A stretch of DNA of 32,000 bases from Zymomonas mobilis subsp. mobilis ATCC 10988 (lineage in GTDB: Bacteria > Pseudomonadota > Alphaproteobacteria > Sphingomonadales > Sphingomonadaceae): positions 1,320,001 through 1,352,000 of the forward strand of contig NC_017262.1 in the NCBI RefSeq assembly GCF_000175255.2, given 5' to 3'. Below the pieces are notes generated by a model. It was not told the DNA's origin and ran no database searches. It saw only the letters and a list, made by a program, of their open reading frames with translations. The translations under genes were made by a program, and so were the position numbers. Numbering within the stretch: the stretch's first letter is position 1; each line of letters opens with the position of its first letter. This document shows, in pieces, positions 646-31,958 of the stretch.

Positions 646-661
646 TGGCACAAAAATTGCT
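646..661 (+). promoter_or_regulatory. sigma-54 (RpoN) -24/-12 promoter for flhA
   Basis: TGGCAC-aaaaa-TTGCT matches the TGGCAC-N5-TTGC consensus exactly. It is ~100 nt upstream of the flhA ATG (762) and sits in an AT-rich gap containing two direct ATATAAAAAT copies. Confidence 0.8.
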
Positions 662-761: not shown

Positions 762-2885
762 ATGGCTACCGCAGCGGTCAGAAAAACGATCTGGCTTGCC
801 GCTGGACGCACGGCTATCTTGCCTGTGGCTATTTTGGTTCTGGTGGGATTAATGGTTGTGCCGGTGCCAACAGCGGTGTTGGATATCGGCTTTATTTCCA
901 ATATCACGATTTCGCTGGCGGTCTTGATGGTGTCGTTGAATGCTGCCAAACCATTAGACTTTTCTTCTTTCCCGACCGTTTTGCTTTTTGCCACACTGTT
1001 ACGACTGTCGCTTAACGTAGCCTCAACCCGCGTTGTTTTGGTAAATGGTCATACTGGCGCAAATGCGGCAGGCATGGTGATTGAATCCTTCGGTCATTTT
1101 TTGATCGGGGAACATTATGTTGTCGGGATTTTCATCTTTGCCATTTTGATGATTATCAACTTGGTCGTTGTGACCAAGGGGGCAGGGCGCGTTTCAGAAG
1201 TCTCTGCCCGTTTTACCTTGGACGCAATGCCGGGTAAACAGATGGCGATTGATGCCGATTTAAATGCTGGTTTAATTACACCTGAAGAAGCCAAAAACAG
1301 AAGACAGGAAGTCGCGACCGAGGCTGGTTTCTATGGCTCAATGGATGGTGCTTCTAAATTTGTGAAGGGGGACGCTGTCGCGGGCGTTCTTATTCTTTTG
1401 GTCAATATTATTGGCGGCCTTATCTTAGGCGTTTTTAGCTATAATATGACCCTTAGCGATGCGGCATCAAATTATGTCCAGCTGGCTATCGGTGATGCTT
1501 TGGTCGCACAGATACCATCTTTTCTGTTGTCTTTTGCAACAGCCTCGATTGTTACCCGCGTTACATCCAGCTTTGACTTGACCGGCCAGATTGTTAGTCA
1601 GTTTAACTCTGCCCGAGCATGGACACCTGTTGCGGTTATTCTGGGTTTTTTAGGCATTGTTCCGGGCATGCCGCATTTTGTTATTTTACCTGCTGCGGGT
1701 CTTTCCGGCTGGACGGCGTGGAAATTGCACAAATCTGCCCAAGCCGAAGCCGCCAAAAAAGAAGCACCGCCGCCTGTCGTGGTGCCAGATACGCCACCGC
1801 CTGTTTCGTGGAATGATGTTTCTGATGGGGCGGTTTTGTCTTTAGAAATTGGCTATGGTCTTATTCCATTGGTGGATGACCGTAAAAAAGCGCCTCTTAT
1901 GGCGCGTGTTACCGGTATTAGACGGCAATTATCCCGCGATTTAGGCTTTGTTATCCCCTTGGTGCGTGTGCGTGATAACCTCTCACTAGGGGCAAACAGC
2001 TATCGGATTAGCGTTTCCGGTGTGGTGACTGGCGAAGATGAAGTCTGGCCAGATCAACTTATGGCGCTCAATAATGGTGATGCGGATGGCACATTAGTAG
2101 GCCGCGTTTCAAAAGATCCTACTTTTGGTCTGAATGCGGTCTGGATTCCTGAAAATCGCCGTTCTGATGCTATTGTAGCGGGTTATACAGTGGTTGATGC
2201 AGCAACAGTTATTGCAACCCATCTTAATCAGTCTATTATCAATAACGCCGCTGATCTTTTTGGCATGGATGATGCCCAAAAATTACTTGATATGTTGAAA
2301 GAAACCGCTCCCCAGCTTGTATCTGCCGTGACGCCTCAACCGTTATCTTTGGCAGTGATTACGCTGATTTGCCGCTCTCTGTTATGGGAAGGTGTTTCTC
2401 TTCACGAATTCCGGCGTATTGTTGAAGCGATGGTTGATGCTGTCCGAGAGGAAACGGAACCGAATGCCCTGTTGGAAGCGATCAGAATACGTATTGGTGG
2501 TATCATCGTTCAGTCGATCGTTCCTGTAAAAATGCCTTTGCCAGTGGTTACTTTTGAACCCAAGTTAGAGGCGTTGCTTTCTCAAGGCGTGCGTTCAGGC
2601 CCCCAAGCCGCTCATCCTTTTGAACCCGCCTTGGCAAACAGGATTGTGACCGCACTTGAATCGGCAGCCCAGCCGCTTTTGTCGAATGGGCAGCGTTTTG
2701 CAATTGTGACCTCGCCGGTTATCCGGCGACCTTTGGCACGTTTGCTTAAACCGCATTTTTCTGAAATTTCTGTGCTGTCTTTTCTTGAAATCCCAGATGG
2801 AAAGCCGGTAGAGGTCGTTGCCGTGGTTGGGGATGGCCAATCATCACATTCGATACCAGCAAATAATGCGGAGGCGGTGTCCTAA
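762..2885 (+). CDS. flhA: flagellar type III export gate protein FlhA (707 aa)
   Basis: N-terminal polytopic membrane region followed by a cytoplasmic domain. Carries the highly conserved FHIPEP-type stretch VVTKGAGRVSEVSARFTLDAMPGKQMAIDADLNAG...FYGSMDGASKFVKGDAVAG. SD-like AAGGAAAG lies 8 nt before the ATG. Confidence 0.97.
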   Translation: MATAAVRKTIWLAAGRTAILPVAILVLVGLMVVPVPTAVLDIGFISNITISLAVLMVSLNAAKPLDFSSFPTVLLFATLLRLSLNVASTRVVLVNGHTGANAAGMVIESFGHFLIGEHYVVGIFIFAILMIINLVVVTKGAGRVSEVSARFTLDAMPGKQMAIDADLNAGLITPEEAKNRRQEVATEAGFYGSMDGASKFVKGDAVAGVLILLVNIIGGLILGVFSYNMTLSDAASNYVQLAIGDALVAQIPSFLLSFATASIVTRVTSSFDLTGQIVSQFNSARAWTPVAVILGFLGIVPGMPHFVILPAAGLSGWTAWKLHKSAQAEAAKKEAPPPVVVPDTPPPVSWNDVSDGAVLSLEIGYGLIPLVDDRKKAPLMARVTGIRRQLSRDLGFVIPLVRVRDNLSLGANSYRISVSGVVTGEDEVWPDQLMALNNGDADGTLVGRVSKDPTFGLNAVWIPENRRSDAIVAGYTVVDAATVIATHLNQSIINNAADLFGMDDAQKLLDMLKETAPQLVSAVTPQPLSLAVITLICRSLLWEGVSLHEFRRIVEAMVDAVREETEPNALLEAIRIRIGGIIVQSIVPVKMPLPVVTFEPKLEALLSQGVRSGPQAAHPFEPALANRIVTALESAAQPLLSNGQRFAIVTSPVIRRPLARLLKPHFSEISVLSFLEIPDGKPVEVVAVVGDGQSSHSIPANNAEAVS

Positions 2886-3707
2886 ATGTCCTTAAAAGTG
2901 ACACGCAACCTTCAAGTCATCGCTGTTGCCAGTGGCAAGGGCGGTGTTGGCAAAACCAATGTGATTGCCAATCTGACGGCAGCGCTTTCTAAAATAAAGC
3001 AGCGCACTCTGTTACTGGATTGTGATCTGGGCATGGCTGATGCCGGTATTGTGCTAGGCATGAATTCTGATCGAACGATTGAAGATATTCTAACCGGCAG
3101 GCGGCAATATGAAGATGTCGTGCAACAAGGGGTCTTTGGACTGAATTTGGTGCCGGGGGTCAATGGCGCTGGGCGTATCATGGAAATGGACGCGGTTGCC
3201 AAACGCCGATTGGTTGATAGTTTGCGCCCTTGGACAAAGTCTTTTGACTATATTCTGCTAGATAATCCTAGCGGCGCTTCCTCCAGTTCGCTTTCTTTGA
3301 TGGCTTCTGCCGATCAGGTGATTTTGGTTCTGTCTTCTGAACCGACATCTTTTATGGATGGCTATGCCCTTATCAAGCTGTTGGCGCTTGAATATAAGGT
3401 GAAAGAGATTCTGGTCGTCACCAATATGGTCGAGGATGAAACCGATGGGCGCGATCTATTTCGGCGTTTTTCGGATGTTTCCGCCCGTTTTCTTGGCATA
3501 AAACTGCATCATTTGGGTTCAGTGCCTCGGGATTCTCATATTCGTGAAGCGGTATTAAGAAAACGCTGCTGTCTGGATTTATTCCCCAGATCACGGGCAT
3601 CAGAAGCCTTTGAACGCTTAGCGCATCGGCTTAATGACTATAGCTTGCTCAAGAAAACAAAGCGTAGCAATTTCTTTTCCAGCTTGGAGATGGTGAGTGC
3701 ATCTTAA
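2886..3707 (+). CDS. flhG: MinD/ParA-family flagellar number/placement ATPase FlhG (FleN/YlxH)
   Basis: Deviant Walker A VASGKGGVGKTN near the N-terminus and an LLLDCDLGMA switch region, giving a MinD-like layout. C-terminal SNFFSSLEMV looks like an amphipathic membrane-targeting tail. The ATG directly abuts the flhA stop (TAAATG). Confidence 0.85.
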   Translation: MSLKVTRNLQVIAVASGKGGVGKTNVIANLTAALSKIKQRTLLLDCDLGMADAGIVLGMNSDRTIEDILTGRRQYEDVVQQGVFGLNLVPGVNGAGRIMEMDAVAKRRLVDSLRPWTKSFDYILLDNPSGASSSSLSLMASADQVILVLSSEPTSFMDGYALIKLLALEYKVKEILVVTNMVEDETDGRDLFRRFSDVSARFLGIKLHHLGSVPRDSHIREAVLRKRCCLDLFPRSRASEAFERLAHRLNDYSLLKKTKRSNFFSSLEMVSAS

Positions 3708-4440
3708 TGATTTTGACGCTTCCGATCCCTCGCCAGATATCTACAGCCGCAACCCGTCAAAAAAGAATGTCGAAGCGTTAATCAAAACCCATCTTCAACT
3801 GGTTCGGAAAATTGCATGGCATGTACATGGCCGTGTTTCTTCTGCGATTGAAGTGGAAGACTTGATACAAATTGGCATGGTTGCTTTGATAGAGGCGGCC
3901 AATGCCTTTGAAAATCGGGGTTTTGCCTTTGCAACCTACGCCTCGATGCGGATAAGGGGCGCGATGATTGACTATATGCGTCAACATGCGGCCACGGCCC
4001 GTTCCAGTATTGTTCGCCAAAAAACCTTGAACAAAGCGCGTGAAGAGTTATCTGCGACGCTTGGTCGTCGTCCCGAAGAGGCTGAAATAGCTGAAAAGCT
4101 GAATATGTCTCCCAGCGAATATCGCGAATGGGCGGATGGGGCGATCAATATTCGGCAAGAATCTTTAGACGACGTTTATTCCGATCATTCCAGCATATTC
4201 ACCGACGATAATGCCGATCAAGCAAGCGAGATGGAACGCGAGGCGTTGCAATCGGCTTTGGCTGAACAGATCAAAACTCTACCAGAGCGGGAGGCCTTGG
4301 TTTTACAGCTTTATTATGTCGAAGAATTAAACCTGAAAGAAATCGGGGAAGTGCTTGATCTAGGCACAGCCAGAATTAGCCAAATCAAAAAATCGGCAGT
4401 CGATCATTTGCGCCCAAAAATGACAGATTGGCAGCATTAA
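3697..4440 (+). CDS. fliA: flagellar sigma factor FliA (sigma-28)
   Basis: Sigma-70 region 2 (DLIQIGMVALIEAANAFENRGFAFATYASMRIRGAMIDYMR) and a region 4 HTH (LNLKEIGEVLDLGTARISQIKKSA). The size (247 aa) fits the group 3 sigma factors. GTG start at 3697 overlaps the flhG end by 11 nt. Confidence 0.93.
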   Translation: MHLNDFDASDPSPDIYSRNPSKKNVEALIKTHLQLVRKIAWHVHGRVSSAIEVEDLIQIGMVALIEAANAFENRGFAFATYASMRIRGAMIDYMRQHAATARSSIVRQKTLNKAREELSATLGRRPEEAEIAEKLNMSPSEYREWADGAINIRQESLDDVYSDHSSIFTDDNADQASEMEREALQSALAEQIKTLPEREALVLQLYYVEELNLKEIGEVLDLGTARISQIKKSAVDHLRPKMTDWQH

Positions 4441-4570
4441 AAAGATAATAAAAATATAAATTCAATAAAAATAAGTAGAATTGATCCAATATTAAAAAAG
4501 CTATTATCTATCAAAAGATTTATTTTTTCTTAATGCAAGGCAAACTACGGCCTTTTAGGGGAACTTTAAT

Positions 4571-5266
4571 ATGGAACAGGGCGAAAATATAAATATCACT
4601 AATCCAAAGGTTGCAATCGCGGTTATTGCACCAGGTGACATGATCTTGGTTGAATTCTCAATCAGTGCGATGGGCATGATTCAACATGCCAAAGATTTGG
4701 ATACCAATATAATTTGTGGTCGTTCCTCGGTATTGGCTGGTGCCAAAAATATAGCCGTTAAAGATGCGCTTAATTGGGGTGCTGATTATATTCTTTTATT
4801 ATCCGGCGATATCACTTTCCCTAATAATGCTCTGCACCATCTTTTGGCACAGAAAAAAGACATTATTGGTGCAACCTACCCAAAACCTATTGCTCCCTAT
4901 AATTTATTGGGTATCGCCGATGATAATCAAGATCAGGCAGAATTAGAAAAAGGCCTGTTGAAAATGCGCTATATGCCGGGCGGTTTCTTATTAGTAAAAA
5001 TGGATGTTTTCAAAAAACTCGATCCTAATCTACCGCATTTTTATTATGATGTTTTCCAAGATGACGTGATGGGCGACGACTTTGTTTTTTGTGATCGCGT
5101 CCGTGAATTGGGCTATGATATCTGGTGCGATACTAATTTGTCAGCCGAAATAGGCCGCATTGGTCAACGGGTCTATCATATGCCAGAAATTGAAGAACGT
5201 CGCTTATTGATGGAGCGGGAATTATTGGAAAAAGAGAAAGAAAAATTACTGCCGCCTTCTGCCTAA
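4571..5266 (+). CDS. GT-A-fold-like glycosyltransferase, paralogue 1 (231 aa); candidate flagellar glycosyltransferase with a partly degenerate DxD (SGD) and a charged coiled-coil tail
   Basis: Clear paralogy with the next ORF: ADYILLLSGD vs ADYLFFLDSD; KDIIGATY vs KDIIGVNY; GGFLLVKMDVF vs GCLLIRMSVF; GDDFVFC vs GEDYVFS; GYDIWCD vs GYKLWFD; IGRIGQ vs VKHIGQ. No signal peptide or TM segment. The family call is by motif pattern only. Confidence 0.6.
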   Translation: MEQGENINITNPKVAIAVIAPGDMILVEFSISAMGMIQHAKDLDTNIICGRSSVLAGAKNIAVKDALNWGADYILLLSGDITFPNNALHHLLAQKKDIIGATYPKPIAPYNLLGIADDNQDQAELEKGLLKMRYMPGGFLLVKMDVFKKLDPNLPHFYYDVFQDDVMGDDFVFCDRVRELGYDIWCDTNLSAEIGRIGQRVYHMPEIEERRLLMERELLEKEKEKLLPPSA

Positions 5267-5322
5267 TTTTTTAGGCTACTTGGCCAGATTTCTTTTTTCC
5301 GCTTTGCTGCAAGGATTGTCTG

Positions 5323-5949
5323 ATGACAGCCAACAAGCCCGATCTGCCTATAAAAATTGCCATTTGTTTTCCATCAGGGCCTATGGTGCATGTCGATTTT
5401 ATGATTTCGACCGCTATCATGATGCAACATACCCCTGATGTTGAATTCATCCTGATTAACAATAAATCGCCGAATATCGCTGTTTCCCGTAATGCCTGCG
5501 TGGCTATGGCACAGGAAGCAAAAGCCGATTATCTCTTCTTTCTCGACAGTGATATGGATATCCCCCCCGATACCATCACAAGATTATTATCTCATGACAA
5601 AGATATTATCGGGGTTAACTATCGTAAAAGAACTGAAAACATTTTATTTTCGGGAGTTGAAAGTGTTAACAAATTTGAAGATTTAACAGATCATGGATTA
5701 TTACCAGCACTATTTATTCCAACAGGCTGTTTACTGATTAGAATGTCGGTTTTTGACCATCTGTTTCGCCCTTATTTTTTATTCGCGCTGCGTGACTTTG
5801 AGGATAACGAGGAAAAGGCTATCTTCGGAGAAGATTATGTTTTTAGCGTCAAGGCGATGGCTGCTGGATATAAATTATGGTTTGATATGGATGTTACTCA
5901 GAAAGTAAAACATATCGGCCAATTACCTTATACACTTGGCTCTGACTGA
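5323..5949 (+). CDS. GT-A-fold-like glycosyltransferase, paralogue 2 (208 aa) with an intact DxD (FLDSDMD)
   Basis: Same motif set as paralogue 1, with a canonical acidic DSD after a hydrophobic strand and a later GEDYVF acidic motif. The sequence is very AT-rich. The gene lies tail-to-tail with flagellin and shares a terminator with it. Confidence 0.6.
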   Translation: MTANKPDLPIKIAICFPSGPMVHVDFMISTAIMMQHTPDVEFILINNKSPNIAVSRNACVAMAQEAKADYLFFLDSDMDIPPDTITRLLSHDKDIIGVNYRKRTENILFSGVESVNKFEDLTDHGLLPALFIPTGCLLIRMSVFDHLFRPYFLFALRDFEDNEEKAIFGEDYVFSVKAMAAGYKLWFDMDVTQKVKHIGQLPYTLGSD

Positions 5950-5975: not shown

Positions 5976-6012
5976 AAAAAAGCCGCCCGAAATTCGGGCG
6001 GCTTCTTTTTTG
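5976..6012. terminator. bidirectional rho-independent terminator shared by the second GT gene (+) and flagellin (-)
   Basis: AAAAA-AGCCGCCCGA-aat-TCGGGCGGCT-TCTTTTTT: a 10-bp GC-rich perfect stem (5981-5990 pairs with 5994-6003) flanked by an A-run upstream and a T-run downstream. Confidence 0.9.
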
Positions 6013-6039: not shown

Positions 6040-6963
6040 TTACTTCAACAGGGACAGAACATTCTGCTGAGACTGGTTAGCCTGTGCCAGCATAGCGGTG
6101 GAAGCCTGGCTCAGGATCTGAGAACGGGCCAGATTGGTCGTTTCAGAAGAGTAATCGGTATCTTCGATACGGCTACGAGCATCAGACAAGTTCGTAACAT
6201 TGGTGGTCAGGTTGTTGACGACCGAGTTCAGGCGGCTTTCGGAAGCACCAAGACCTGCACGGATTTTGTTAACTGAAGTCAAGGCCTTGCTAATCGTGTC
6301 AAGTGCTGCAAGAGCACCAGTTGAAGTCGAAACAGTCAAACCAGGTTTTTGGCCGCCGCTGGGGGGGGTGCCGGTGCCGGGGACGCCGCTGTTCATGACT
6401 ATTGACAAATCAGTAAGCGCACTGATCGTAATAGTTACCTGATCGGTTGACGTAGCATTGGTTGCACCAGTCTGAATTTTAAAGCTTGTAGCAGGTTTAG
6501 ATGCAACTGCTGTAGTAGTACCGTCGCTACCCACTGTAACTACAGCGCTGGCAAAGAGAGCCGAACCATTAAATTTTGTGCCCGTGACAACCTGTTTGAT
6601 CTGACCCTGAAGCTGCTTAACTTCAATGTCCATATCAGTGCGATCAGTGTCCCGATAGGTGCCGTTGGCAGACTGAACGGCCAGCTGGTTGATACGCTGC
6701 ACCATGTTGGTGATTTCACCCAAAGCACCGTCAGCGGTCTGAGCCAAAGAAATACCATCATTGGAGTTCTTGATAGCCTGATTCATACCATTGATCTGGG
6801 CGGTCATGGAGCTTGAAATAGCAAGACCAGCAGCGTTATCGGAAGCACTGTTGATGCTCTTACCGCTGGACAAACGCGTCATGGAGGTGTTCAGGTTGTT
6901 GTCAGCTAAACGGGAAGCATTCTGGGCGCGAAGAGCACTGGTGTTGGTATTAATAACGGTCAC
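6040..6963 (-). CDS. fliC: flagellin (short form with a small variable domain)
   Basis: Conserved flagellin N-terminus (T)[49 protein letters not shown] and C-terminus [50 protein letters not shown] place the start at GTG 6961-6963 (giving MTVINTN...) because GAGAAGGAAT lies ~8 nt upstream. The track's TTG at 6981 would sit on that SD sequence. Confidence 0.95.
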
Positions 6964-7568
6964 AAATAAATTCCTTCTCAAAAATTAGAGCCGTTAGAGA
7001 GGGGCAGCAGGACTAAATTTGTTGTCCGTGACCGCCATAAATTGAGTAACGGCTTATCCCGATTTTTTTTAAATTTATGCTTTCACTATTTTTAATTTTT
7101 AGAAGGAAATTTATCGTAACTAACTGTAATTTAATGATTTTATTTTTTTAATTTCGATTTTAAGGACAAAAGCCCAAGCCATAGAAAAATAACAGATGGC
7201 TAATTTTAAAATAAAAAGAGGGGCAACTTTACTATAAAAATACTCTACCCAAATACTGTCGGAATTTTGACAGGCTTCTACTAACCCATTCTTGCCTTAT
7301 CAGAGCTAGGTGTCATTTTTTAATCAGCCTTATCCAAAATAGAGCTATCTTTTAAAAAGCCTTTACAATCATAACTGCCTAAACGCCCTTAGCGGATTCT
7401 GACTGATCGCGTCCTTTTGAGACATCCAAGTCTTTGAAAATATTCTAAAATAGCCCCGATTACGGGTTATATACCCCAATAAGTCAGCAACATTTCGTCA
7501 AAAAATCTTCCTGGATTTCAGGCTGCAAAAGGTTTTTTGACGGTAAAGCCGAAACAATAAAAATAAAA

Positions 7569-7584
7569 TGGCATAGTTTTTGCT
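7569..7584 (+). promoter_or_regulatory. sigma-54 (RpoN) -24/-12 promoter ahead of the activator/fliE-flhB operon
   Basis: TGGCAT-agttt-TTGCT, one mismatch to TGGCAC-N5-TTGC. It is ~20 nt upstream of GTG 7605 and ~80 nt upstream of ATG 7665. A sigma-70-like TTGACG (7537-7542) followed by an A/T-rich -10-like run overlaps it. Confidence 0.75.
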
Positions 7585-14410: not shown

Positions 14411-14832
14411 CGCAGAAGCTTGCACGCAGAAAGAGAATAGCCAAAGTGCGTCATGTCCAACATTTGCAGGCGCAGAATGAATTAATGCGCGCTCAAGGGC
14501 GGGTTAATAGTTTGTCCGCTTCTGTTGACCGGTTAACTGAAATACAATCCTCATTAAAGCCTGTAACGGGTCGGGTAAATGGTGCGGCTATGGCCAATGC
14601 TGGAGAGCTGATGCTGCGTCTGGATACAGCTTATAAAGATCTAACAGCTATGTTAGATCAGGCGCAAACAGTCGTAGAGCGTCAACGGCAGAAAAAAATT
14701 CACACAAAAATTCAGCATGAGACCGCAAAAAAGTTACATGATGCCGTAAAAGAAGAAATACAGAAGACGCAGGAGCGTCGCCTGATGACTATAACCGGAC
14801 AGCGCCCCATTAAAAGAGGTGAAGCACTATGA
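14407..14832 (+). CDS. fliJ: flagellar export chaperone/stalk protein FliJ
   Basis: 141-aa, charged, coiled-coil-type sequence. It occupies the canonical slot between fliI and fliK and has ATGA overlaps at both ends. No sharp motif, so the call rests mostly on synteny. Confidence 0.7.
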   Translation: MTQKLARRKRIAKVRHVQHLQAQNELMRAQGRVNSLSASVDRLTEIQSSLKPVTGRVNGAAMANAGELMLRLDTAYKDLTAMLDQAQTVVERQRQKKIHTKIQHETAKKLHDAVKEEIQKTQERRLMTITGQRPIKRGEAL

Positions 14833-17237
14833 CAGATGTCACGCCAATTCTACCTTCCGCTGGATCTTCTTCGGCCTCATCTGCTTCACCCGCCAGTAGC
14901 GCACAGAAAGCGGATAAAGCTAATCCGTTTGATGATATGCTTAACTCTGTCCAGACAGTATCTGTTCCTGATACAAAAAAAATTGTTACGGATAAAAAAA
15001 CGACGGTTTCTAATCTAATAGCAGCCACTGCGCCGTCAAATACAGATAAGGGTAGTTCTACTGCTTCATCAATAAAAAGGGTAGAAACCGATACGCCCTC
15101 TAATTCTATGACGTCTTCTGTCTCGAAACAAAATTTTGTAAGTGCTAGCTCTAAAGGCAATACCAAAAAAATAGTAGATGCCCAACCTACGTTACCGGAG
15201 GTTTCAGGCAAGGACGATTTAGACAACGGTGAAGCCATTCCCCTTGCGTCATCATCAAATGATGAGATCAAGGACTCGGACTCATTGCCTTCTGTTAAAA
15301 AACTGTCTCAAAATTCAGCTGATTTACTGGCTTTTGTTGGAGTGTATGTCGATCAAGAAAATGTAGATTCAACTTCTAACTGGTTACCAGGGCAAGAGTC
15401 ATATTCTCAATCTCCAGAAATCATACCACAGGAGAATATGGGTGAAAAAACCACTCCTTTATCAGTGGGTTTATATAGCCTTAGAGATAATGATGTCGCG
15501 TCATCTGATGATGTCGAAGTTTCCGACTCTCATTCGAATAAAAATGAGTTATCAGATAATGATGACCAGCTGCAGTCAGCTGATAATGTTGTAGCTAACG
15601 CATCTATTGGTTTAACTGCTACCTTGGCAGCCGCACCTGTGTTGGCTTCTGCTGTGCAAGCGACCATTACTGGACAGAATCGTGTCGATAGTGAGGATGC
15701 TTCACTTCCACAGCCAGTGAAGAGTTTAAAAGTGCCATCGTCATCTTTGGCTAGTGACGGCTCTGCGTATCTGACTTCTGTTTCAAATACGGAATTATCC
15801 GCAACGACATCTGTTGGTTTAAAACCTAAAGCTACTTTAACTGATGATGATTCAAAATTAGCTCTGACCAATTTTTCATCGGAGCTGATGTCAACCGGAG
15901 TCAAAGACTCTGCAGGAATAACTCATACAACAGAAGATAAACCTGCCTTAGCCTTAAAAGCTGATGCTTCACCATCTGTCCTTGCGAACTTGACCTCTGT
16001 ACTTACTGACAAAGCGAATGATAGCAGCAAAAATCAGTCTTCGGATAGGGATAATCAGCCTGTTTCTGTAGCTGGTAATGTTATGATGAGTGGTAAGCTT
16101 GATGCTTTAGCACTAAGTCGGAGCGATATTTCAAACACGCCTATAACAACAGAGCTGAAAGATAGTGCAACATCCGTGCTTGAAGCGGTTGATCGGCAAC
16201 AGCCAAGTCTGATGGCTAGTGATTCAGTAACACCTGCTGCCACGATAAAAACGACAGCGCCTTCGTCTATTCCGCCATCCAATACAGTCCAAAATATGAT
16301 GGCAGTCAGTGCATCTCTTACTAAAGGGAATGATAGTCATACAAATAAGGTAGATAGCACACAGACTGTGGAGCGCAGTAGCAAACTAGCAGAAGGTAAC
16401 TTGCAAACGCTCAATCAGACTATGGATAGATCTGCTGATTTTAGTAACCAATCTGACAATGCAAACAGTATTTTTGCAGGCGATAATACGCAAAACACGG
16501 CCTATACTCCGGTGAGTAGACGTCAGCTTACAGAAATCTATCAACCAAACAATTCCACAAGCTCTGTCTCAACAGATCAAGTAAATGAAACACAGCCACG
16601 TCTTAAAAAGGATGTGGAAATTGAGAATCTACATTCTGAAGACAATGTAACAGGAAGTGAAAAGAATAATTTTTCTAACGTAATGGCATTGGCAGCCAAT
16701 ATTGTTTCTTCCAATAATGCAGTAAATCAGGATAGTAATACTATTACCTTAGGTAATTTAATGCCTAGTCAAGATCAAGCTAGCATTAATAACCAGCTTG
16801 ACTTGGTACATCAAGGCCTATGGCTCGATCAATTGACGCGTGATATTGCTACTGCGTCAGGATCTAACAGTAATCTGACTTTTAATTTACATCCGGATCA
16901 TCTTGGTATGCTACATGTATCCATCCAATCAGCGGGTGATGGTGTAGCTGTTCATATGACAGCGAGTAGCGAAGCTGCTCAGTCTATTATCGCAGGGGCT
17001 CGTCATGATTTAATGAATGAAGCTCATGCCCAAGGAGTACATATTACAGATGCTCGGATTGATTTAAACAGCCAGACAATGTCCCAACAATCGGGGCAAA
17101 ATGGCCAGCCGTCTCATCAACAAATGGCTGATCAACAGCGATCTGCTGTGACGGCTCCGATAACTAACAATACAAGAAATGAACAACCGGACGATGATCT
17201 TGCTGAAGAGCAAAAAAATCGTGCGCGTTACGCTTAA
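14829..17237 (+). CDS. fliK: flagellar hook-length control protein FliK, unusually long (802 aa)
   Basis: C-terminal Flg_hook-type domain LDQLTRDIATASGSNSNLTFNLHPDHLGMLHVSIQSAGDGVAVHMTASSEAAQSIIAGARHDLMNEAHAQGVHITDARIDL, followed by a Gln-rich tail. The long Ser/Thr/Asn/Asp-rich central region looks disordered. N-terminal NPFDDMLNSV resembles the FliK N-terminus. Confidence 0.85.
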   Translation: MTDVTPILPSAGSSSASSASPASSAQKADKANPFDDMLNSVQTVSVPDTKKIVTDKKTTVSNLIAATAPSNTDKGSSTASSIKRVETDTPSNSMTSSVSKQNFVSASSKGNTKKIVDAQPTLPEVSGKDDLDNGEAIPLASSSNDEIKDSDSLPSVKKLSQNSADLLAFVGVYVDQENVDSTSNWLPGQESYSQSPEIIPQENMGEKTTPLSVGLYSLRDNDVASSDDVEVSDSHSNKNELSDNDDQLQSADNVVANASIGLTATLAAAPVLASAVQATITGQNRVDSEDASLPQPVKSLKVPSSSLASDGSAYLTSVSNTELSATTSVGLKPKATLTDDDSKLALTNFSSELMSTGVKDSAGITHTTEDKPALALKADASPSVLANLTSVLTDKANDSSKNQSSDRDNQPVSVAGNVMMSGKLDALALSRSDISNTPITTELKDSATSVLEAVDRQQPSLMASDSVTPAATIKTTAPSSIPPSNTVQNMMAVSASLTKGNDSHTNKVDSTQTVERSSKLAEGNLQTLNQTMDRSADFSNQSDNANSIFAGDNTQNTAYTPVSRRQLTEIYQPNNSTSSVSTDQVNETQPRLKKDVEIENLHSEDNVTGSEKNNFSNVMALAANIVSSNNAVNQDSNTITLGNLMPSQDQASINNQLDLVHQGLWLDQLTRDIATASGSNSNLTFNLHPDHLGMLHVSIQSAGDGVAVHMTASSEAAQSIIAGARHDLMNEAHAQGVHITDARIDLNSQTMSQQSGQNGQPSHQQMADQQRSAVTAPITNNTRNEQPDDDLAEEQKNRARYA

Positions 17238-22710: not shown

Positions 22711-24405
22711 ATGACAAGCTCAACTTCTGGCGTAACATCTACATCCTCATCGACGGCAGCGACCACGGCGGCAACAACGTCTTCGTCTTCTACGTCTACC
22801 TTGTCTTCTATCTTGACAACTTTGGGTGCTGGGTCAGGTCTTGATACCACAAATTTAGTTAATGAGCTTGTCGCTGCGTCTCAAGATCCAATCCAACAAC
22901 AATTGGATACGCAAAGCACAACCAACTCCAATCGGATATCAGCTTTAGGCACTATTACTTCTGATCTTAGTGCTTTAAACACTTCTTTATCTTCTTTGGT
23001 AAGTGGGGGGTCTCTTTTAACGCAGCCTAGCGTTTCTGATACCTCTGTTTTAACCGCAACTGCTGAAAGCGGATCGAGATTAAGCAACCTTTCTGGATCT
23101 ATTAAAGTTGAGCAGTTAGCACAGGCACAAAGTATTAGCACAACAGCTTATGATAGCAGCAAGACCTTTGATGCTGGCACGCTCACTTTTACAAACAGCT
23201 ATGGTAGTGCAACAGTTCCAATTGATGCCGGTTCATCGCTTTCAGATGTAGCCAAAGCTATCAACAAGAAGCAGGCTGGTTTTACGGCTACAGTTTTAAC
23301 CCAGTCGTCTGGCCAGCAACAGTTGATGATTACCGGTATGACCGGTGACGCTTATGGTTTTAGCGTATCCGGTTCAGGTGGTGCTTCTGATATCAATTAT
23401 GATAAAAGTGCCAATAGTGGTAGCATGACTGTCAATGTTGCCGCGCAGGATGCCAAGCTTTCTTATAATAATGTTGAGGTTACTCGTAGTTCTAATACAT
23501 TTGATGATTTGATTTCGGGTGTTAGTATCAATTTGAAATCGGCTTCATCACAACCCGTGACTTTGGGATCAACGCGTCAGACAAGCAATGTTCGGCAGGC
23601 GGTTCTTAACTTTGTCGATGCTTATAACGAGCTTTATTCTGATATCAGCACTAATACCGCGATTGGAACATCTTCAAGCAGTGCTGGTGCGTTGGCTAAT
23701 GATGCTGGGGTACGTACTCTTAAAAGTTCTCTGAACAGTATGATTAACCAGAAGCTGTCTTCGACTGGCAGCTATTCGACTTTAGGCGAGATTGGTGTTT
23801 CTATCAATCGTGATGGAACGTTGACGGCTGATACAACGCAATTGGATACAGCCCTGGCAAATGATCCCGATTCTGTTGAAGCCCTATTCAACCCGACCCA
23901 AAGTACGAGTAATTCAGCGGTTTCTATTACCAGTAGCATTGGTAAGGTTACACCGGGTACCTACAAACTGTCTGATGTGACTTATGATGAATCCGGTAAT
24001 ATTACCGGTGCCAAGTTGAATGGTAAGGACATGCTGGTCTCGGGGAAAAGCTTGATTGCTTCTTCTGATTCCACTGCCGCGGGTTTGGTCTTAAAAATTA
24101 GTGGTACGAGTGTTACTGATTCGACGATTTCAATTGATGCTGGGGTCGGAGGTGCTGTTAATCAGCTTTATACTCAGATGACCTCTTCTGGCGGAGCTCT
24201 AACGGCCAGTAAGAATACTTATACGAAGGTAGCTTCCGCTATTACTCAGAAGGAAACCGATCTTACTTCCAAAATGAGCACGTATCGGACTAGATTGACG
24301 ACACAATTTACAGCTATGAATACGGCGGTTTCTGGCTATAAATCGACCTTGAGTTTCCTGAAACAGCAGATTTCTCTGTGGACGAAAGACAGTTCTAGTA
24401 GCTAG
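22711..24405 (+). CDS. fliD: flagellar filament cap protein FliD (HAP2) with a 30-aa Ser/Thr N-terminal extension
   Basis: Canonical FliD N-terminus LSSILTTLGAGSGLDTTNLVNELV begins only at residue 31. C-terminus YRTRLTTQFTAMNTAVSGYKSTLSFLKQQISLW. SD AAAGGA lies 8 nt before ATG 22711. Confidence 0.93.
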   Translation: MTSSTSGVTSTSSSTAATTAATTSSSSTSTLSSILTTLGAGSGLDTTNLVNELVAASQDPIQQQLDTQSTTNSNRISALGTITSDLSALNTSLSSLVSGGSLLTQPSVSDTSVLTATAESGSRLSNLSGSIKVEQLAQAQSISTTAYDSSKTFDAGTLTFTNSYGSATVPIDAGSSLSDVAKAINKKQAGFTATVLTQSSGQQQLMITGMTGDAYGFSVSGSGGASDINYDKSANSGSMTVNVAAQDAKLSYNNVEVTRSSNTFDDLISGVSINLKSASSQPVTLGSTRQTSNVRQAVLNFVDAYNELYSDISTNTAIGTSSSSAGALANDAGVRTLKSSLNSMINQKLSSTGSYSTLGEIGVSINRDGTLTADTTQLDTALANDPDSVEALFNPTQSTSNSAVSITSSIGKVTPGTYKLSDVTYDESGNITGAKLNGKDMLVSGKSLIASSDSTAAGLVLKISGTSVTDSTISIDAGVGGAVNQLYTQMTSSGGALTASKNTYTKVASAITQKETDLTSKMSTYRTRLTTQFTAMNTAVSGYKSTLSFLKQQISLWTKDSSSS

Positions 24406-26046: not shown

Positions 26047-29000
26047 TTATTTATTACTTTCTGTCTGGACATGACCTGACCTTTCCAATTTGTCCCATCC
26101 GACCTTGGGGCCTCGGATAGCTTGTGTTAAGGCTTTAATGACAACATAATACATTATCTGACGATAACCGATCCGTTGTGGAATCAAGAGCCATAATAGA
26201 GACCATTTCTCTTTCCGCTCCAAGGCAAAAGCGACGACTCCAGACATTAAATCGATAAGTGTAAAAACGCTCCAGTAAGCCGCCATTTTTTGGAGATCGT
26301 CCCCTTGTTGCACCCAGCCATGTTGATAGACTGCGAAAACAGTAGCCATAATGCTGATAACTAAAGCAAGGTCGATAATAGGCGATATAGTTGCGAACCC
26401 GATTTGAAAGATTAGAGATTGTGGCAGCCCTATATAAGCCAATCCTTTCGGGCGGCGATTTTTGATAATCGACCAGTGTTTCCAAAGACATTGCAATGTT
26501 CCAAAAGCCCAGCGGAAACGTTGACGTGCAAGAGCTCGAATGGTTTCTGGCGCTTCTGTCCAAGCAACAGCATAGGGATCATAACGTACTGCCCAATCAT
26601 GTTCTTGGATAATAATGGTTAAATCTTGATCTTCAGCCAAAGTTTGATCAGGGAAACCTCCAACCTGACGCAGAGTCTCTGCCCGCCATGCCCCGACGGC
26701 ACCGGGCACAACCGTCATAGCATTTAAAAGAACCGTTGCTCGTCTCTCAAGATTTTGAGCTGTGATATATTCTAGTGCTTGCCAACGTGTGATCAGATTA
26801 ATCCGATTGCCAACTTTGGCATTACCAGCAACTGCTCCTAATTTTGGATCAGAGAACCATCGCGTTAGACGGGCAATTGTCCGTGGCTCAAAATGCGTAT
26901 CTGCATCAAGAGCTATAATAATTTCACCTTTCGCTTTTTGAACGCCGTGGTTCAATGCGCGCGCTTTCCCGCCATTGGAAAGCCGGATAAGCTGAACACG
27001 AGGATCATCAGCAAATTGGCTTTCAACAATTTGAGAACTGTTATCGGTAGAGCCATCATCAATAACAATTACCTCGATATTATTAACCTCAGCACTGGCT
27101 AGGACACGCCGGATAGAGGCTTCAATAACAGCTTCTTCATTAAAGGCGGGGATAAGCACACTGATAGTGCGATCTGGATCGATAGGTGGGAAAATTAGCC
27201 GATTTTCTTTCCGTGCTTGGATGATCGAAAAAGCGGAAAGAAATAAAGCACGCAAAATACCCAAGGTGATTGCAATTGCGAATATCCACCGAAGCGCAAT
27301 AACGGAGGCCCCAAGGCAAGAAAAAAGAGCAAAATTCCATCTTGCTGAAACGCGTTCAACCGGACTCAAGGGGGGCATCGCATCGTCACGTTTGAGATTG
27401 ATAAGATCTGAAACTAAAACCAGTTTATAGCCATTTGCCCGTAATTGATGAATGATATCAGGCAGAGCTGCTATGGTTTGTGTGCGATCACCACCAGAAT
27501 CATGTAAAAGAACGATCTGGGCACTATGCTGGCTAGTTGCCTGTTTGACCTGTTCCATAACTCTCTCAATGATCTCATCCTTTTTTGGCCGTTGCCAGTC
27601 ATTGGGGTCAACATGGAGTCCAACAGAAAGATAGCCCAATTTTTGCGCCGCATAGACGGGATCAATCTCGTCGGCTGTTGTCGGTTCAGCATCTCCGAAA
27701 AAAGGAGCGCGAAAAAGGCGCAATGAATGTCCGGTAAAAGCTTGGAAAAGGCGTTGAGTAGCATTAACTTCAATAATTGTACTATTGGCGCTGGCCATAC
27801 CCAAATTAGGATGGGTATAGGTATGATTACCTACTTCATGGCCTTCTTTTATTTCTCGTAATAATAAGTTGCGATTGGTAAGCGCATTTTCACCGATAAT
27901 GAAGAAGGTCGCTGGTGCATGTTCCTTTTTCAAAATATCGAGAATTTTAGGTGTCCATTTCTGGTCAGGGCCGTCATCAAAAGTTAAAGCAATCATGCCC
28001 GGACGATAACCCGCCCGTTCAATAGCATAGGGAAGGGGAATAGAGGAGAATCTTTCATCCGTAATTAGACCTTCTTTGTCGAGGTCAATTTGGCGCTCTC
28101 CTGCAACTGGACGACTGGCAACTCTTAGGACTTCTCCTGTGCCTTCGATATCAACTTCAGTACCTGCTGGAATATGACTTAATGCCTTGACGGGATCAGC
28201 AACTATTGCTGTGTCATTAGCACCATTATGGATTAAATGACCTTTCCCAAAAATATTCCACAGTGACGGATCTTCTGAACCAAGACGCCATAAGGCTAGA
28301 GCATTGAATCCCAGATGGTGCGACATTTTAGTCTGGTTATAAAAACTGACAGCATCTAGCATCCACACATCATGTAAAATACCGGCTTCACTATAAGAAA
28401 AATGCGTGTTTCCAGTCTCCTTATCAAAGACTGGAACTGTCCCTGATTCATGTGCGGTAAGCCATGCCTGTTCGATAGATATAGCATCGGTATCGCTACC
28501 TTTTTTCCAATTATAGGCATATGAGCCTAAGGCAACGATCACTTTCTCTGGTGGTAGATTTTGGGTGGCTTGTTCTACAACATCAAGAAACCAGTCATTT
28601 GAGGCAATTGCGCCCGGTTCACCTTCTGGATAATGTTCATCGTAAGCCATTAAAATGAGTTTATCGCTTACATTAGCAACGGCTGATAAATTCCATGCCT
28701 CATCGGCAACAGGCACGGCGACGGTCAAAATCCAATGATGCGCAGAAAAACGATCGTGGGTTTCTTTTAGAAGTTGTAAATAAAAAGGCAGTGTTTGCTT
28801 GTTCAGAGATTCAAAGTCAAAAACAGCGCCGTCAGCCTGATTCTTAACTAAAAATTTTTCAATATTATTAAGAAATTGTAGTCGTGCAGCTGGGTCTCGC
28901 ATTAAAATAGCTGCATTTTTGCCATCCCATTCGCCATTACTAACATTTTGCACCATAGGCAAAATTTTAGGTTTCTGCTTGGCATTATTGATAATCGCAT

Positions 29001-29427
29001 GACCTTGGGGATCCGGGAATTCTGTCCAGTGATGGTCTGCTCCTGTAACAGATAGCCAGCCTGGCGATAGCCAGTCAATGTCATTGATGTGCCGTGACAG
29101 TGATGCAATGCTGGCATCATCCCACGGCGTATAGAAGGCCATGCTCAAAGTATCTTTTAGAGGCTTAGGAGGTGTTTTTACTAAACCAATACGAGATAAA
29201 GCCCGATGAAAATTGATACGCGTGTGGGATGTAATCCCGTTAGGCTGTGCTTTGATGGGGGCGCGGCCAATAGAAAAAGGTAAATTTTGCCCGATTGACG
29301 GAATCGCAACTGTCGCAAAAAGGGTTGCTATAGCTAAAAAGAGTAAAGCAAAAAAAGCAACGATTGCGAGAGCAAAACGCCTTCTTCTTTTCCCTGATGA
29401 ATCATAAAATACTGGTTTTTTGTTCAT
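26047..29427 (-). CDS. 1126-aa fusion: N-terminal TM anchor + GH18-like domain + CE4/NodB polysaccharide deacetylase + processive family-2 glycosyltransferase (PgaC/IcaA/NodC-like) with C-terminal TM helices
   Basis: GH18-like ADGAVFDFES (DG.D.D.E pattern with the Glu retained), nt ~28808-28837. All five CE4 motifs are present: TFDDGP (nt ~27968-27985), HTYTH, RAPFF, DPNDW, IVLLHD. GT2 motifs: VLIPAFNEE, VIDDGSTDNS, ALDADT, AEDQDL, QRFRW (nt ~26509-26530). Confidence 0.88.
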   Translation of the reverse strand: MNKKPVFYDSSGKRRRRFALAIVAFFALLFLAIATLFATVAIPSIGQNLPFSIGRAPIKAQPNGITSHTRINFHRALSRIGLVKTPPKPLKDTLSMAFYTPWDDASIASLSRHINDIDWLSPGWLSVTGADHHWTEFPDPQGHAIINNAKQKPKILPMVQNVSNGEWDGKNAAILMRDPAARLQFLNNIEKFLVKNQADGAVFDFESLNKQTLPFYLQLLKETHDRFSAHHWILTVAVPVADEAWNLSAVANVSDKLILMAYDEHYPEGEPGAIASNDWFLDVVEQATQNLPPEKVIVALGSYAYNWKKGSDTDAISIEQAWLTAHESGTVPVFDKETGNTHFSYSEAGILHDVWMLDAVSFYNQTKMSHHLGFNALALWRLGSEDPSLWNIFGKGHLIHNGANDTAIVADPVKALSHIPAGTEVDIEGTGEVLRVASRPVAGERQIDLDKEGLITDERFSSIPLPYAIERAGYRPGMIALTFDDGPDQKWTPKILDILKKEHAPATFFIIGENALTNRNLLLREIKEGHEVGNHTYTHPNLGMASANSTIIEVNATQRLFQAFTGHSLRLFRAPFFGDAEPTTADEIDPVYAAQKLGYLSVGLHVDPNDWQRPKKDEIIERVMEQVKQATSQHSAQIVLLHDSGGDRTQTIAALPDIIHQLRANGYKLVLVSDLINLKRDDAMPPLSPVERVSARWNFALFSCLGASVIALRWIFAIAITLGILRALFLSAFSIIQARKENRLIFPPIDPDRTISVLIPAFNEEAVIEASIRRVLASAEVNNIEVIVIDDGSTDNSSQIVESQFADDPRVQLIRLSNGGKARALNHGVQKAKGEIIIALDADTHFEPRTIARLTRWFSDPKLGAVAGNAKVGNRINLITRWQALEYITAQNLERRATVLLNAMTVVPGAVGAWRAETLRQVGGFPDQTLAEDQDLTIIIQEHDWAVRYDPYAVAWTEAPETIRALARQRFRWAFGTLQCLWKHWSIIKNRRPKGLAYIGLPQSLIFQIGFATISPIIDLALVISIMATVFAVYQHGWVQQGDDLQKMAAYWSVFTLIDLMSGVVAFALERKEKWSLLWLLIPQRIGYRQIMYYVVIKALTQAIRGPKVGWDKLERSGHVQTESNK

Positions 29428-31179: not shown

Positions 31180-31671
31180 CTAGGTTATGTTGACAAAGAA
31201 AGGTAACCACAATTTTACGGCCGCGAGATGAAGGAAGGCGAGAAAAGATTTTCTGGTTTTGTCATAGCGTGTGGCAATGCGCCTGAACTGCTTTAGCTTA
31301 TTAAACATCCGCTCAATACGATTACGATCTTTGTAGTGCTGGAGATTATAAGGAATAGGCTTTTTTCGATTGGAACGAGGCGGGATAACAGGAAGAATGC
31401 CTCGAAAAAGCAGTTTTTCGCGTAACCTATCGCTATCATATCCTTTATCAGCGAGAAAACAGTGGGGTGTTGTGACAGGGATATCGATCAAGCTATCAGC
31501 GCCAGAATAATCAGAGACCTCACCACCGGTTAGTGCGAAAGCTAGAGGGCGGCCTTGACCATCGGAACGGGCGTGGATCTTGCTCGTAAAGCCTCCGCGG
31601 CTGCGACCAAAGCCTTCCTTATACGTCCCCCTTTTGCGCCAGCCGCTTGGCTGTGGGCGCGAATAATCGTA
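31180..31671 (-). CDS. IS5-family transposase OrfB frame, expressed as an OrfAB fusion by -1 frameshift (~259 aa by my count)
   Basis: The -1 frame is open from 31671. The slippery site A-AAA-G lies at 31631-31635 (minus strand), followed by GGGG. After the shift it reads RGTYKEGFGRSRGGFTSKIHARSDGQGRPLAFALTGGEVSD...FLADKGYDSDRLRE...YKDRNRIERMFNKLKQFRRIATRYDK, which carries the DDE Asp2 and Glu signatures. Confidence 0.85.
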   Translation of the reverse strand, partial: YDYSRPQPSGWRKRGTYKEGFGRSRGGFTSKIHARSDGQGRPLAFALTGGEVSDYSGADSLIDIPVTTPHCFLADKGYDSDRLREKLLFRGILPVIPPRSNRKKPIPYNLQHYKDRNRIERMFNKLKQFRRIATRYDKTRKSFLAFLHLAAVKLWLPFFVNIT

Positions 31672-31958
31672 CTATCTATCATATGTTGCCAGTCATCTGT
31701 CAGGCCAAGGTCAACGAGAGTTTCAAGAAGAGCGTCCCACACACCCTGTTCTGCCCACCTACGAAACCGAACATAGACCGAATTCCATTTCCCATAACGT
31801 TCATGCATATCTCGCCACGGGCAGCCTGTTCGAAGCACATAAAGCATACCATTGAGAAATAACCGATTACTTTTGGCGGGACGCGCGCAGCGGCCTCGTT
31901 CGCTTGGAAGAAGACCCTGTATTATCTCCCACTCCGCGTCCGTCAGATCTCCTCGCAT
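31542..31958 (-). CDS. IS5-family transposase OrfA (N-terminal DNA-binding part, includes the first DDE Asp region)
   Basis: LTDAEWEIIQGLLP...RLFLNGMLYVLRTGCPWRDMHERYGKWNSVYVRFRRWAEQGVW...IDSTIIRAH is the typical DUF4096/IS5 N-terminal signature. The frame ends shortly after the A-AAA-G site. Confidence 0.88.
   Translation of the reverse strand: MRGDLTDAEWEIIQGLLPSERGRCARPAKSNRLFLNGMLYVLRTGCPWRDMHERYGKWNSVYVRFRRWAEQGVWDALLETLVDLGLTDDWQHMIDSTIIRAHSQAAGAKGGRIRKALVAAAEALRARSTPVPMVKAAL

Follow-up and report, generated by a model that had tools for sequence, protein, structure and literature searches.

A candidate flagellar glycosylation module of two minimal GT-A-fold proteins encoded beside flagellin in Zymomonas mobilis

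Introduction

Flagellin glycosylation controls filament assembly, motility, phage attachment and immune recognition. To our knowledge, the characterised flagellin glycosyltransferases (GTs) belong to a few classes, i.e., Maf, FlmG/FgtA and large GT2 proteins. Whether a further, much smaller kind exists is the question raised by a 32,000-nt stretch of DNA from Zymomonas mobilis subsp. mobilis ATCC 10988 (NC_017262.1, positions 1,320,001 to 1,352,000; hereafter, the window). Two small genes, here named par1 (231 amino acids, aa) and par2 (208 aa), lie in it between fliA, for a flagellar sigma factor, and the flagellin gene fliC. An earlier reading of the sequence (the original prediction) had described them as tandem paralogues with GT-A-like motifs and proposed them as an uncharacterised flagellar glycosylation module. 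Are these proteins glycosyltransferases, and what would they modify? On balance, we judge it somewhat probable that par1 and par2 work together in the cytoplasm as a module that O-glycosylates protein for the flagellar filament, par2 being catalytic and par1 its obligate non-canonical partner. As a candidate, this module is strengthened by a second clade in which a related gene is linked to flagellin, by Ser/Thr-rich neighbours elsewhere, by a hypervariable island and by expression.

Results

par2 has a complete GT-A core and par1 a modified one

The open reading frames (ORFs) of both genes were recovered as predicted, and so was their slot between fliA and flagellin, with Sigma70 domains found in the orthologous loci. 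Their paralogy is likewise clear, as the two products align with 32% identity across 198 residues (BLASTP, E 1e-31). A recent tandem duplication, on the other hand, was rejected: each paralogue is 40-47% identical to outgroup homologues, compared with 32% to one another, and the two do not pair in a neighbour-joining tree (distance-based, no bootstrap).

In Pfam scans, par2 matched Glycos_transf_2 (PF00535) with 27.7 bits against a threshold of 23.3, covering profile positions 53-168 only. Scores for Anp1 (GT62; threshold 28.8) were 27.1 for par2 and 14.8 for par1, and no CAZy family could be assigned to either protein from Pfam scores. AlphaFold2 models reached a mean predicted local distance difference test (pLDDT) score of 90.1 (par2) and 88.4 (par1), and Foldseek returned 143 and 201 PDB matches at E<=1e-3 for the two models. 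The top matches listed were all nucleotide-diphospho-sugar transferase folds, led at E 1e-8 to 1e-10 by the viral protein A197, COLGALT1, the GT domain of LH3 and, for par2, Mnn9. par1 and par2 are soluble, and their models confidently assign them to the GT-A fold.

Conserved columns were derived from a family alignment of 32-34 sequences (par2 numbering throughout). D77 and D188 were invariant, and R56, D75, G135, D171 and H197 were at least 90% conserved; the motif blocks listed in the original prediction are real and map onto these columns. The common core of GT-A enzymes consists of a DxD motif, a G-loop, an xED catalytic base and a C-terminal His (PMC7185993). par2 has all four, namely the canonical DSD noted before (D75-S-D77), G135, G169-E170-D171 and H197. 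Since it holds every core element, par2 is predicted to be a metal-dependent and probably inverting transferase. All par1 orthologues carry K56, Ser or Phe at position 75, G76, D77, D170-D171, D188 and R197, and so retain the core in part (S-G-D, G, D-D, R): the first Asp of the DxD and the metal-binding His are lost, while the catalytic-base Asp is kept. These altered active-site residues agree with the proposed functional divergence of par1. Its SGD was confirmed, and its charged tail corresponds to a C-terminal helix (residues 205-226 in the AlphaFold2 model); this is a single predicted helix, and the coiled coil formerly proposed for it is putative.

Which family do the two proteins belong to? 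As anticipated, they do not resemble Maf, FlmG/FgtA or GmaR-sized enzymes. Pfam scans at E<=10 found no MAF_flag10 domain in either, and Pfam gave no match to tetratricopeptide repeats (TPRs); as single GT-A domains of ~200 aa they differ from the FlmG/FgtA type, FlmG being a GT-B enzyme. Nor are they members of GT25/COLGALT, to which the likeness is structural only: the alignment is confined to the DxD stretch in the non-catalytic GT1 domain (chain residues 103-166), with a single-sequence E of 0.08 and a profile E of 7e-6, and does not take in the catalytic GT2 domain and its EDD Mn site. They do fit among minimal viral GT-A proteins of the A197 and phrog_1574 kind, sharing profile similarity over most of their length and a single ~200-aa domain. 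The unannotated phage family phrog_1574 was matched by par1 (E 1.2e-18) and par2 (E 9.1e-18), phage homologues are 25-33% identical, and uncultured-phage proteins, the closest structures in BFVD, match the par models with a template modelling score of up to 0.81. The A197 protein of Sulfolobus turreted icosahedral virus (PDB 2C0N) is both the best PDB fold match to par2 (E 6e-10) and the best sequence match to the family profile, which retrieves it from sequence alone (E 2.9e-8). Cluster representatives of the family at large number 32,451 with a cut-off of E<=1e-3 and 3,666 with one of E<=1e-30.

Related genes adjoin flagellin in a second clade and Ser/Thr-rich genes elsewhere

Each of the eight Zymomonas genomes retrieved, with subspecies pomaceae among them, has the order fliA-par1-par2 followed by convergent fliC. 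A scan of a genome collection yielded 80 related loci. Neighbours were classified for loci outside Zymomonas whose product shares at least 38% identity with par2, which without redundant entries numbered 56. At 13 of these, all from an uncultured alphaproteobacterial clade, the gene lies ~300 bp upstream of flagellin-flbT-flaF and in the same direction. A GT4 gene precedes it, as does, at about half of the 13 loci, a gene for a 249-aa family member with canonical motifs; three further loci of this clade stop short of, or are without, a flagellin gene. These loci represent a second, independent and differently organised flagellin linkage. In both groups, i.e., 8/8 Zymomonas genomes and the 13 loci of the second clade, a glycosyltransferase gene sits within the flagellar regulon next to flagellin.

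Fifteen of the 56 loci have a same-strand neighbour 75-1000 bp away that encodes 130-420 aa with 40-52% Ser+Thr. They come from Roseiarcus, Beijerinckiaceae, other Hyphomicrobiales and metagenome-assembled genomes of Caulobacterales. A common N-terminus (MSLTVSG..Q.SLL.KLLQAS) marks the Ser/Thr-rich ORFs, together with PPPGPPPGPPP tracts and amphipathic helices that recur; they lack a signal peptide and match no Pfam family. Their codon-position GC is of the coding type, the ENA and JGI pipelines independently call them as genes, and the GT gene is upstream. Convergent downstream is a gene for an NAD-dependent sugar epimerase/dehydratase. A homology search meant to name the Ser/Thr-rich protein returned only five 'hypothetical' proteins, owing to low complexity. 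Two observations are worth recording on this unannotated family, whose members in Table 1 measure 150-420 aa: its genes often stand downstream of hrpB and face the sugar epimerase gene, always on the same strand as, and ~1 kb or less from, the par-like GT gene; and its N-terminus loosely resembles those of flagellins.

Eight further loci, from Chthoniobacteraceae, adjoin an inverse-autotransporter beta-domain gene. At the one checked further (L023), a DUF11/FG-GAP gene comes after the inverse-autotransporter gene, an arrangement that may represent a glycosylated adhesin system. Together, 36 of the 56 loci adjoin flagellin, a Ser/Thr-rich protein or an inverse-autotransporter gene, which is the pattern expected for a protein O-glycosyltransferase rather than a polysaccharide enzyme.

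A hypervariable island spans par1, par2 and the flagellin core

Among near-clonal Zymomonas strains, the flanking flagellar genes show 99-100% protein identity and a synonymous divergence (dS) of ~0.03. Between the window and a ZM4-type locus (L090), FlhA is 100% identical and FlbD and FliF are >99% identical, and dS amounts to 0.35-0.40 in par1, 0.47 in the N-terminal half of par2 and 1.06 in its C-terminal half, with the flagellin core saturated. Synonymous divergence in this island is therefore 10-40 times the background. In another strain (L093), FlbD is 100% and FliA 99% identical to the window, compared with 60% for the C-terminal half of par2. The ratio of nonsynonymous to synonymous divergence (dN/dS) is 0.05-0.2 throughout. 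Such high synonymous divergence under purifying selection argues for old alleles spread by recombination and not for relaxed constraint.

Within par2, the C-terminal half (residues 99-208) is hypervariable and the nucleotide-binding half conserved; in GT-A enzymes, the C-terminal half is the acceptor/sugar side (PMC7185993). The flagellin varies from 269 to 310 aa among strains, with conserved termini around a hypervariable, length-variable core (residues about 136-225). This core is the Ser/Thr-rich segment named in the original prediction, and Ser and Thr make up 34% of residues 141-225.

par1 and par2 are probably read from an upstream sigma-54 promoter and are expressed

The flagellar genes run in the order flhA, fleN, fliA, par1, par2, convergent flagellin and sigma-54 activator, followed by fliE through fliS (Table 1). 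Between the perfect sigma-54 site upstream of flhA and position 5976, no intrinsic terminator was detected. The terminator that begins there, foreseen as common to par2 and flagellin, is a hairpin with folding z-scores of -5.9 and -6.3 and T-runs on either strand. Neither an intrinsic terminator nor a consensus for sigma-28 or sigma-54 is present in the fliA-par1 spacer; at 4525-4563, a weak hairpin overlaps the par1 ribosome-binding site (RBS) without being significant (z -1.6). We considered a FliA-dependent (sigma-28) promoter of par1's own and dropped it, as TAAA-N14-16-GCCGATAA occurs nowhere in the window and the spacer conserves only the RBS-overlapping hairpin. With neither a terminator nor a recognisable promoter in the spacer, read-through from fliA is the simplest interpretation. 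An flhA-fleN-fliA-par1-par2 transcript would thus probably start at the sigma-54 site, which we infer to drive par1 and par2.

Both proteins are made in strain ZM4, whose proteome data (PMC12502597, Table S5) list them as ZMO0627 (par1) and ZMO0628 (par2). The assignment follows gene order, with FlhA as ZMO0624, the site-determining protein as ZMO0625 and ZMO0629 carrying the name FliC in that publication. Their log2 label-free quantification values were 27.6-29.0 and 25.9-27.5, respectively, with FliC at 27.9-29.4. Levels of the two are correlated (r 0.80), and both correlate with those of FleN (r 0.75-0.87), which fits co-transcription in the fleN-fliA unit. As regards a flagellar role, the proteome pattern neither proves nor disproves it.

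par1 may act as a partner subunit of par2

Why would a degenerate enzyme be kept next to an intact one? Natural fusions of two or three family domains offer a precedent (P0058, 747 aa; P0062, 399 aa; P0084, 464 aa; P0112, 425 aa). Two of them, P0062 and P0112, carry a degenerate N-terminal domain, with RDG or DPQ for DxD and the His lost, ahead of a canonical C-terminal one, i.e., the same order as par1-then-par2. Comparable divisions of labour are known from two other systems: in COLGALT1, a non-catalytic GT-A domain binds Ca2+ and UDP-Gal structurally beside the catalytic domain (PMC12003778), and Maf-2 requires the cis-encoded adaptor GlfM (bioRxiv 2023.12.03.569772). Purifying selection is stronger on par1 (dN/dS 0.05-0.10) than on par2 (0.11-0.19); par1 is therefore functional. 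Given the drift of position 75 between Ser and Phe and the fusion precedents, we lean slightly, on a chance little better than even, to par1 being a non-catalytic or donor-binding structural/specificity subunit.

A variant of the same model, which we hold to be a fair way short of probable, makes the two proteins sequential transferases: par2 would initiate on Ser/Thr, and a metal-independent par1, with Arg197 replacing the metal, would add a second sugar to give a disaccharide. par1 does retain the invariant D77 and D188, the xED aspartate and the G-loop, is the more constrained of the two and is abundant in the ZM4 proteome, and activity persists despite loss of the DxD and C-terminal His in GT14 and prokaryotic GT6 enzymes (PMC7185993). 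The three canonical GTs of the second flagellin-linked clade, moreover, imply an oligosaccharide. Yet a position 75 that is Ser or Phe among par1 orthologues looks like an abandoned ligand site, the N-terminal domains of P0062 and P0112, placed in the same order, are clearly dead, and COLGALT1 and LH3, the best structural matches, each couple a catalytic with a non-catalytic GT-A domain.

The flagellin core is the proposed acceptor

In the mechanism that we propose, par1 and par2 would be made by read-through of the sigma-54 flhA-fleN-fliA transcript, so that the enzymes would be present before FliA turns on flagellin. The conserved N-terminal half of par2 would bind a housekeeping NDP-sugar, and its variable C-terminal half would position Ser/Thr residues of the flagellin core for O-glycosylation, prior to export through the flagellar type III system. 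par1, having lost two metal ligands, with Arg at the His position and an extra C-terminal helix, would act jointly with par2. Allelic diversity of par2 and of the flagellin core would then give rise to strain-specific filament surfaces. Consistent with the original prediction, Pfam scans of the entire 32-kb window detected no genes for nonulosonic-acid (pse/leg) synthesis, nor any Maf or TPR genes.

A number of observations weigh against this proposal. Literature searches yielded no demonstration, by mass spectrometry or glycostain, of glycosylated Zymomonas flagellin, and the sequence points to no particular donor sugar. par1 has no PF00535 match and all of its Pfam matches are sub-threshold; it also has no upstream sigma-28 promoter. 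In ZM4, ZMO0627 and ZMO0628 do not track FliC (r about 0.14) and go up in hydrolysate while structural flagellar proteins go down. Among the Zymomonas genomes, pairwise identity in the par2 C-terminal half is uncorrelated with that in the flagellin core (Spearman -0.15, p 0.44, n=8 genomes), leaving lockstep co-evolution of the two unsupported. Diversity declines outward from the flagellin core through the par2 C-terminal half, the par2 N-terminal half and par1 to fliA, as would also be expected from hitchhiking beside a diversifying flagellin. Finally, 17 of the 56 related loci have no telling neighbour (one of them lies ~900 bp from a 2140-aa two-partner secretion exoprotein), and the wider family takes in phage and archaeal members, so that it is not flagellum-specific.

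Several of these points would suit a non-protein acceptor, such as the lipopolysaccharide core, an exopolysaccharide or a small molecule, with fliC adjacency incidental and diversity acquired by hitchhiking. The decay of diversity, the par2 alleles that do not co-vary with flagellin cores, par protein levels that do not follow FliC and the 17 loci lacking a protein-type neighbour are all compatible with it, as are the weak-scoring Pfam and NCBIfam neighbours of the par proteins, mostly polysaccharide or lipid GT2 enzymes. We nevertheless regard this explanation as unlikely. par1 and par2 have neither a membrane segment nor a lipid-carrier partner, the operon includes no polysaccharide export or polymerase gene, and the nearest solved relatives, by profile and by fold, are protein- or virion-modifying GT-A enzymes. 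Adjacency to flagellin, moreover, arose twice, and protein-type neighbours prevail at 36 of the 56 loci. The divergence itself is lopsided, running ~1.6 kb into the par genes and ending within ~0.6 kb on the flbD side, and this asymmetry counts against pure hitchhiking.

Less likely still, in our estimate, the pair modifies a different flagellar export substrate: the Ser/Thr N-terminus of FliD, FlgM or hook-associated proteins. FliD was already put forward as a second substrate in the original prediction, and it is indeed 33.5% Ser+Thr overall with an N-terminal Ser/Thr tract of ~30 residues. The Zymomonas anti-sigma factor FlgM (144 aa), encoded just left of window position 1 (L006:2077-2511, L088:281-715), reaches 38-43% Ser+Thr, and in other lineages the partner is a Ser/Thr-rich protein other than flagellin. 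The par genes, however, adjoin flagellin and not flgM or fliD (17 kb off), the second flagellum-linked clade likewise has its GT gene directly upstream of flagellin, and it is the flagellin core that belongs to the hypervariable island.

That the genes are phage-derived passengers without a flagellar role, decaying or kept for an unrelated function, is very improbable despite the sequence and structural matches to phage proteins described above (phrog_1574, E ~1e-18 for both), as the pair occupies the same site in 8/8 Zymomonas genomes across subspecies, evolves at dN/dS 0.05-0.2, is expressed as protein, has no flanking phage genes and gave no defence-system match in PADLOC.

Relation to known systems

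Listeria GmaR and Clostridioides difficile CD0240 are GT2-type flagellin O-glycosyltransferases that use housekeeping UDP-sugars. Their GT-A/GT2 domains are encoded next to flagellin and transfer a common sugar to core Ser/Thr residues, with no dedicated nonulosonic-acid pathway. Both are much larger, multidomain proteins, GmaR with TPR repeats and an additional role in regulation; compared with these enzymes as commonly described, par1 and par2 are bare ~200-aa domains in a pair. In the flagellin glycosylation islands of a-type Pseudomonas aeruginosa and of Campylobacter, flagellin-adjacent GT genes vary among strains far beyond the rest of the flagellar regulon. Those islands are large, span many genes including ones for sugar synthesis and vary mainly in gene content, whereas the Zymomonas locus has two fixed genes and varies by allelic replacement.

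Maf-2/GlfM and FlmG resemble the proposed pair in glycosylating flagellin in the cytoplasm before export and in being encoded inside flagellar loci. They also leave acceptor recognition to a separate module, the role proposed here for par1: GlfM for Maf-2 and, in FlmG, a TPR domain next to the GT-B catalytic domain (PMC7591256). Their folds, in contrast, are Maf and GT-B, their donors are CMP-pseudaminic and CMP-legionaminic acids made by linked pse/leg genes, and GlfM is a four-helix bundle and not a GT paralogue.

Outside flagella, A197 is, like par2, a minimal single-domain GT-A protein of ~200 aa with a DxD, a catalytic Asp and an Mn site. It has been proposed as the cytosolic glycosyltransferase of the viral coat protein (PMC4187194), so that its target would be a structural protein, too. 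A197 differs in being archaeal-viral, ~17% identical and biochemically uncharacterised, with no flagellar link and no degenerate paralogue as partner. Human COLGALT1/GLT25D1 and the GT and accessory domains of LH3/PLOD3, top structural matches of both paralogues, perform protein O-glycosylation on a GT-A fold and show weak profile similarity around the DxD. Each couples a non-catalytic with a catalytic GT-A domain (PMC12003778), echoing par1/par2 and the natural fusions; they are, however, eukaryotic, marginally similar in sequence (single-sequence E about 0.1), act on hydroxylysine in the secretory pathway, and have fused and much larger domains.

A broader conjecture, which we offer as speculative and more apt to fail than to hold, is that much of the family of ~200-aa A197-like GT-A proteins consists of cytoplasmic O-glycosyltransferases for cis-encoded, Ser/Thr-rich exported proteins. 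In Zymomonas and the uncultured alphaproteobacterial clade, the partners would be flagellins; in Hyphomicrobiales and Caulobacterales they would be a new family of mucin-like Ser/Thr/Pro proteins, and in Verrucomicrobia adhesins. Many of the active enzymes would have a degenerate pseudo-GT as partner or fused domain, which would determine acceptor specificity. In Z. mobilis, par1, par2 and the flagellin core would persist as ancient alleles that recombine and make the filament surface diverse. Flagellin glycosylation and GT2-type flagellin enzymes are already known; the searchable literature yielded no description of the minimal A197-like family, of the pairing seen in it or of the Ser/Thr-rich partners. 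If the proposed role of the pair is correct, it would define a minimal two-subunit GT-A flagellin system that needs no dedicated sugar pathway and would be attractive as a small tool for O-glycosylating proteins in the cytoplasm. A family with tens of thousands of bacterial, archaeal and phage members would gain its first function, as would the unannotated Ser/Thr-rich proteins. Z. mobilis is used industrially to make ethanol, and there a flagellar surface locus that varies among strains would bear on phage resistance and strain typing.

Further features of the locus

Table 1 Features of the window and of related loci (window positions; entries with an L number give the related locus and the position in it)
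Feature	Position	Strand	Description
sigma-54-type promoter	646..661	+	TGGCACAAAAATTGCT, zero mismatches to consensus; 5' of flhA
flhA, flagellar export gate	762..2885	+	ORF; orthologue with PF00771 FHIPEP
fleN/flhG-type MinD/ParA ATPase	2886..3707	+	ORF, orthologue; ZMO0625 'site-determining protein'
fliA, sigma-28 family flagellar sigma factor	3697..4440	+	Sigma70_r2/r3/r4 in orthologue
fliA-par1 spacer	4441..4570	+	AT-rich; poorly conserved among strains
par1, orthologue of ZMO0627	4571..5266	+	GT-A-fold protein (predicted), non-canonical active-site residues, C-terminal charged helix
par2, orthologue of ZMO0628	5323..5949	+	predicted minimal GT-A glycosyltransferase, full core motif set
bidirectional intrinsic terminator	5976..6008	both	G+C stem of 11-15 bp, T-runs on either strand; serves par2 (+) and flagellin (-)
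flagellin fliC	6040..6963	-	307 aa from GTG at 6963; convergent with par2; proposed acceptor
sigma-28-like promoter of flagellin	7046..7071	-	TAAA-N14-GCCGTTAC, then conserved 83-nt leader
fliD, filament cap	22711..24405	+	FliD_N/FliD_C domains; alternative or additional acceptor candidate
Ser/Thr-rich family members (1)	L009:10808-11662, L011:10789-11640, L012:10822-11631, L013:10781-11527, L015:3428-4294
Ser/Thr-rich family members (2)	L021:10569-11825, L047:11105-11755, L005:7144-7890, L029:323-1042, L043:1691-2383
Chthoniobacteraceae loci	L023:7125-10307, L036:866-3793, L040:10654-13801		par-like GT gene facing a short inverse-autotransporter beta-barrel gene

The flagellin most likely starts at the GTG (MTVINTN..., RBS GAAGGA upstream), for which a TTG at 6981 was set aside. 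Its promoter element is conserved in three Zymomonas genomes; as its spacer is a base shorter than in the Escherichia coli consensus, it is only tentatively assigned to sigma-28. The 5' leader of ~83 nt (window 6964-7046, minus strand) is near-invariant in the same number of genomes despite the hypervariable coding core, which suggests post-transcriptional control of flagellin. No Rfam family matched this leader, and an Rfam scan of the window found no known RNA element. FliD has an unusual N-terminal extension of ~30 residues, nearly all Ser, Thr or Ala (MTSSTSGVTSTSSSTAATTAATTSSSSTST), ahead of its canonical N-domain.

Other regions of the window show further peculiarities. A sigma-54 site with one mismatch (7569-7584, plus strand) lies 5' of the sigma-54 activator gene and hints at autoregulation of the activator. 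Between flgM and flhA, an ORF of 103-105 aa (37-348) has no Pfam match; judged by position, it could encode a FlgN-like chaperone. FliK (14829-17237, plus strand) is unusually long at 802 aa, with 24% Ser+Thr and the C-terminal Flg_hook as its only recognisable domain. Just past fliS and adjoining an AI-2E transporter gene, a 1126-aa fusion (26047-29427, minus strand) combines glycoside hydrolase family 18 (GH18), polysaccharide deacetylase and processive GT2 (chitin/NodC-like) domains; in the hydrolysate proteome of ZM4, its neighbour there, ZMO0654 ('polysaccharide deacetylase'), drops alongside the flagellar proteins. At the right end (31180-31958, minus strand), an IS4/IS5-family transposase is split into two ORFs, a DUF4096 N-terminal and a DDE C-terminal part, which are probably either joined by a programmed frameshift or disrupted; a copy 83-84% identical to it is found at the left end of L006.

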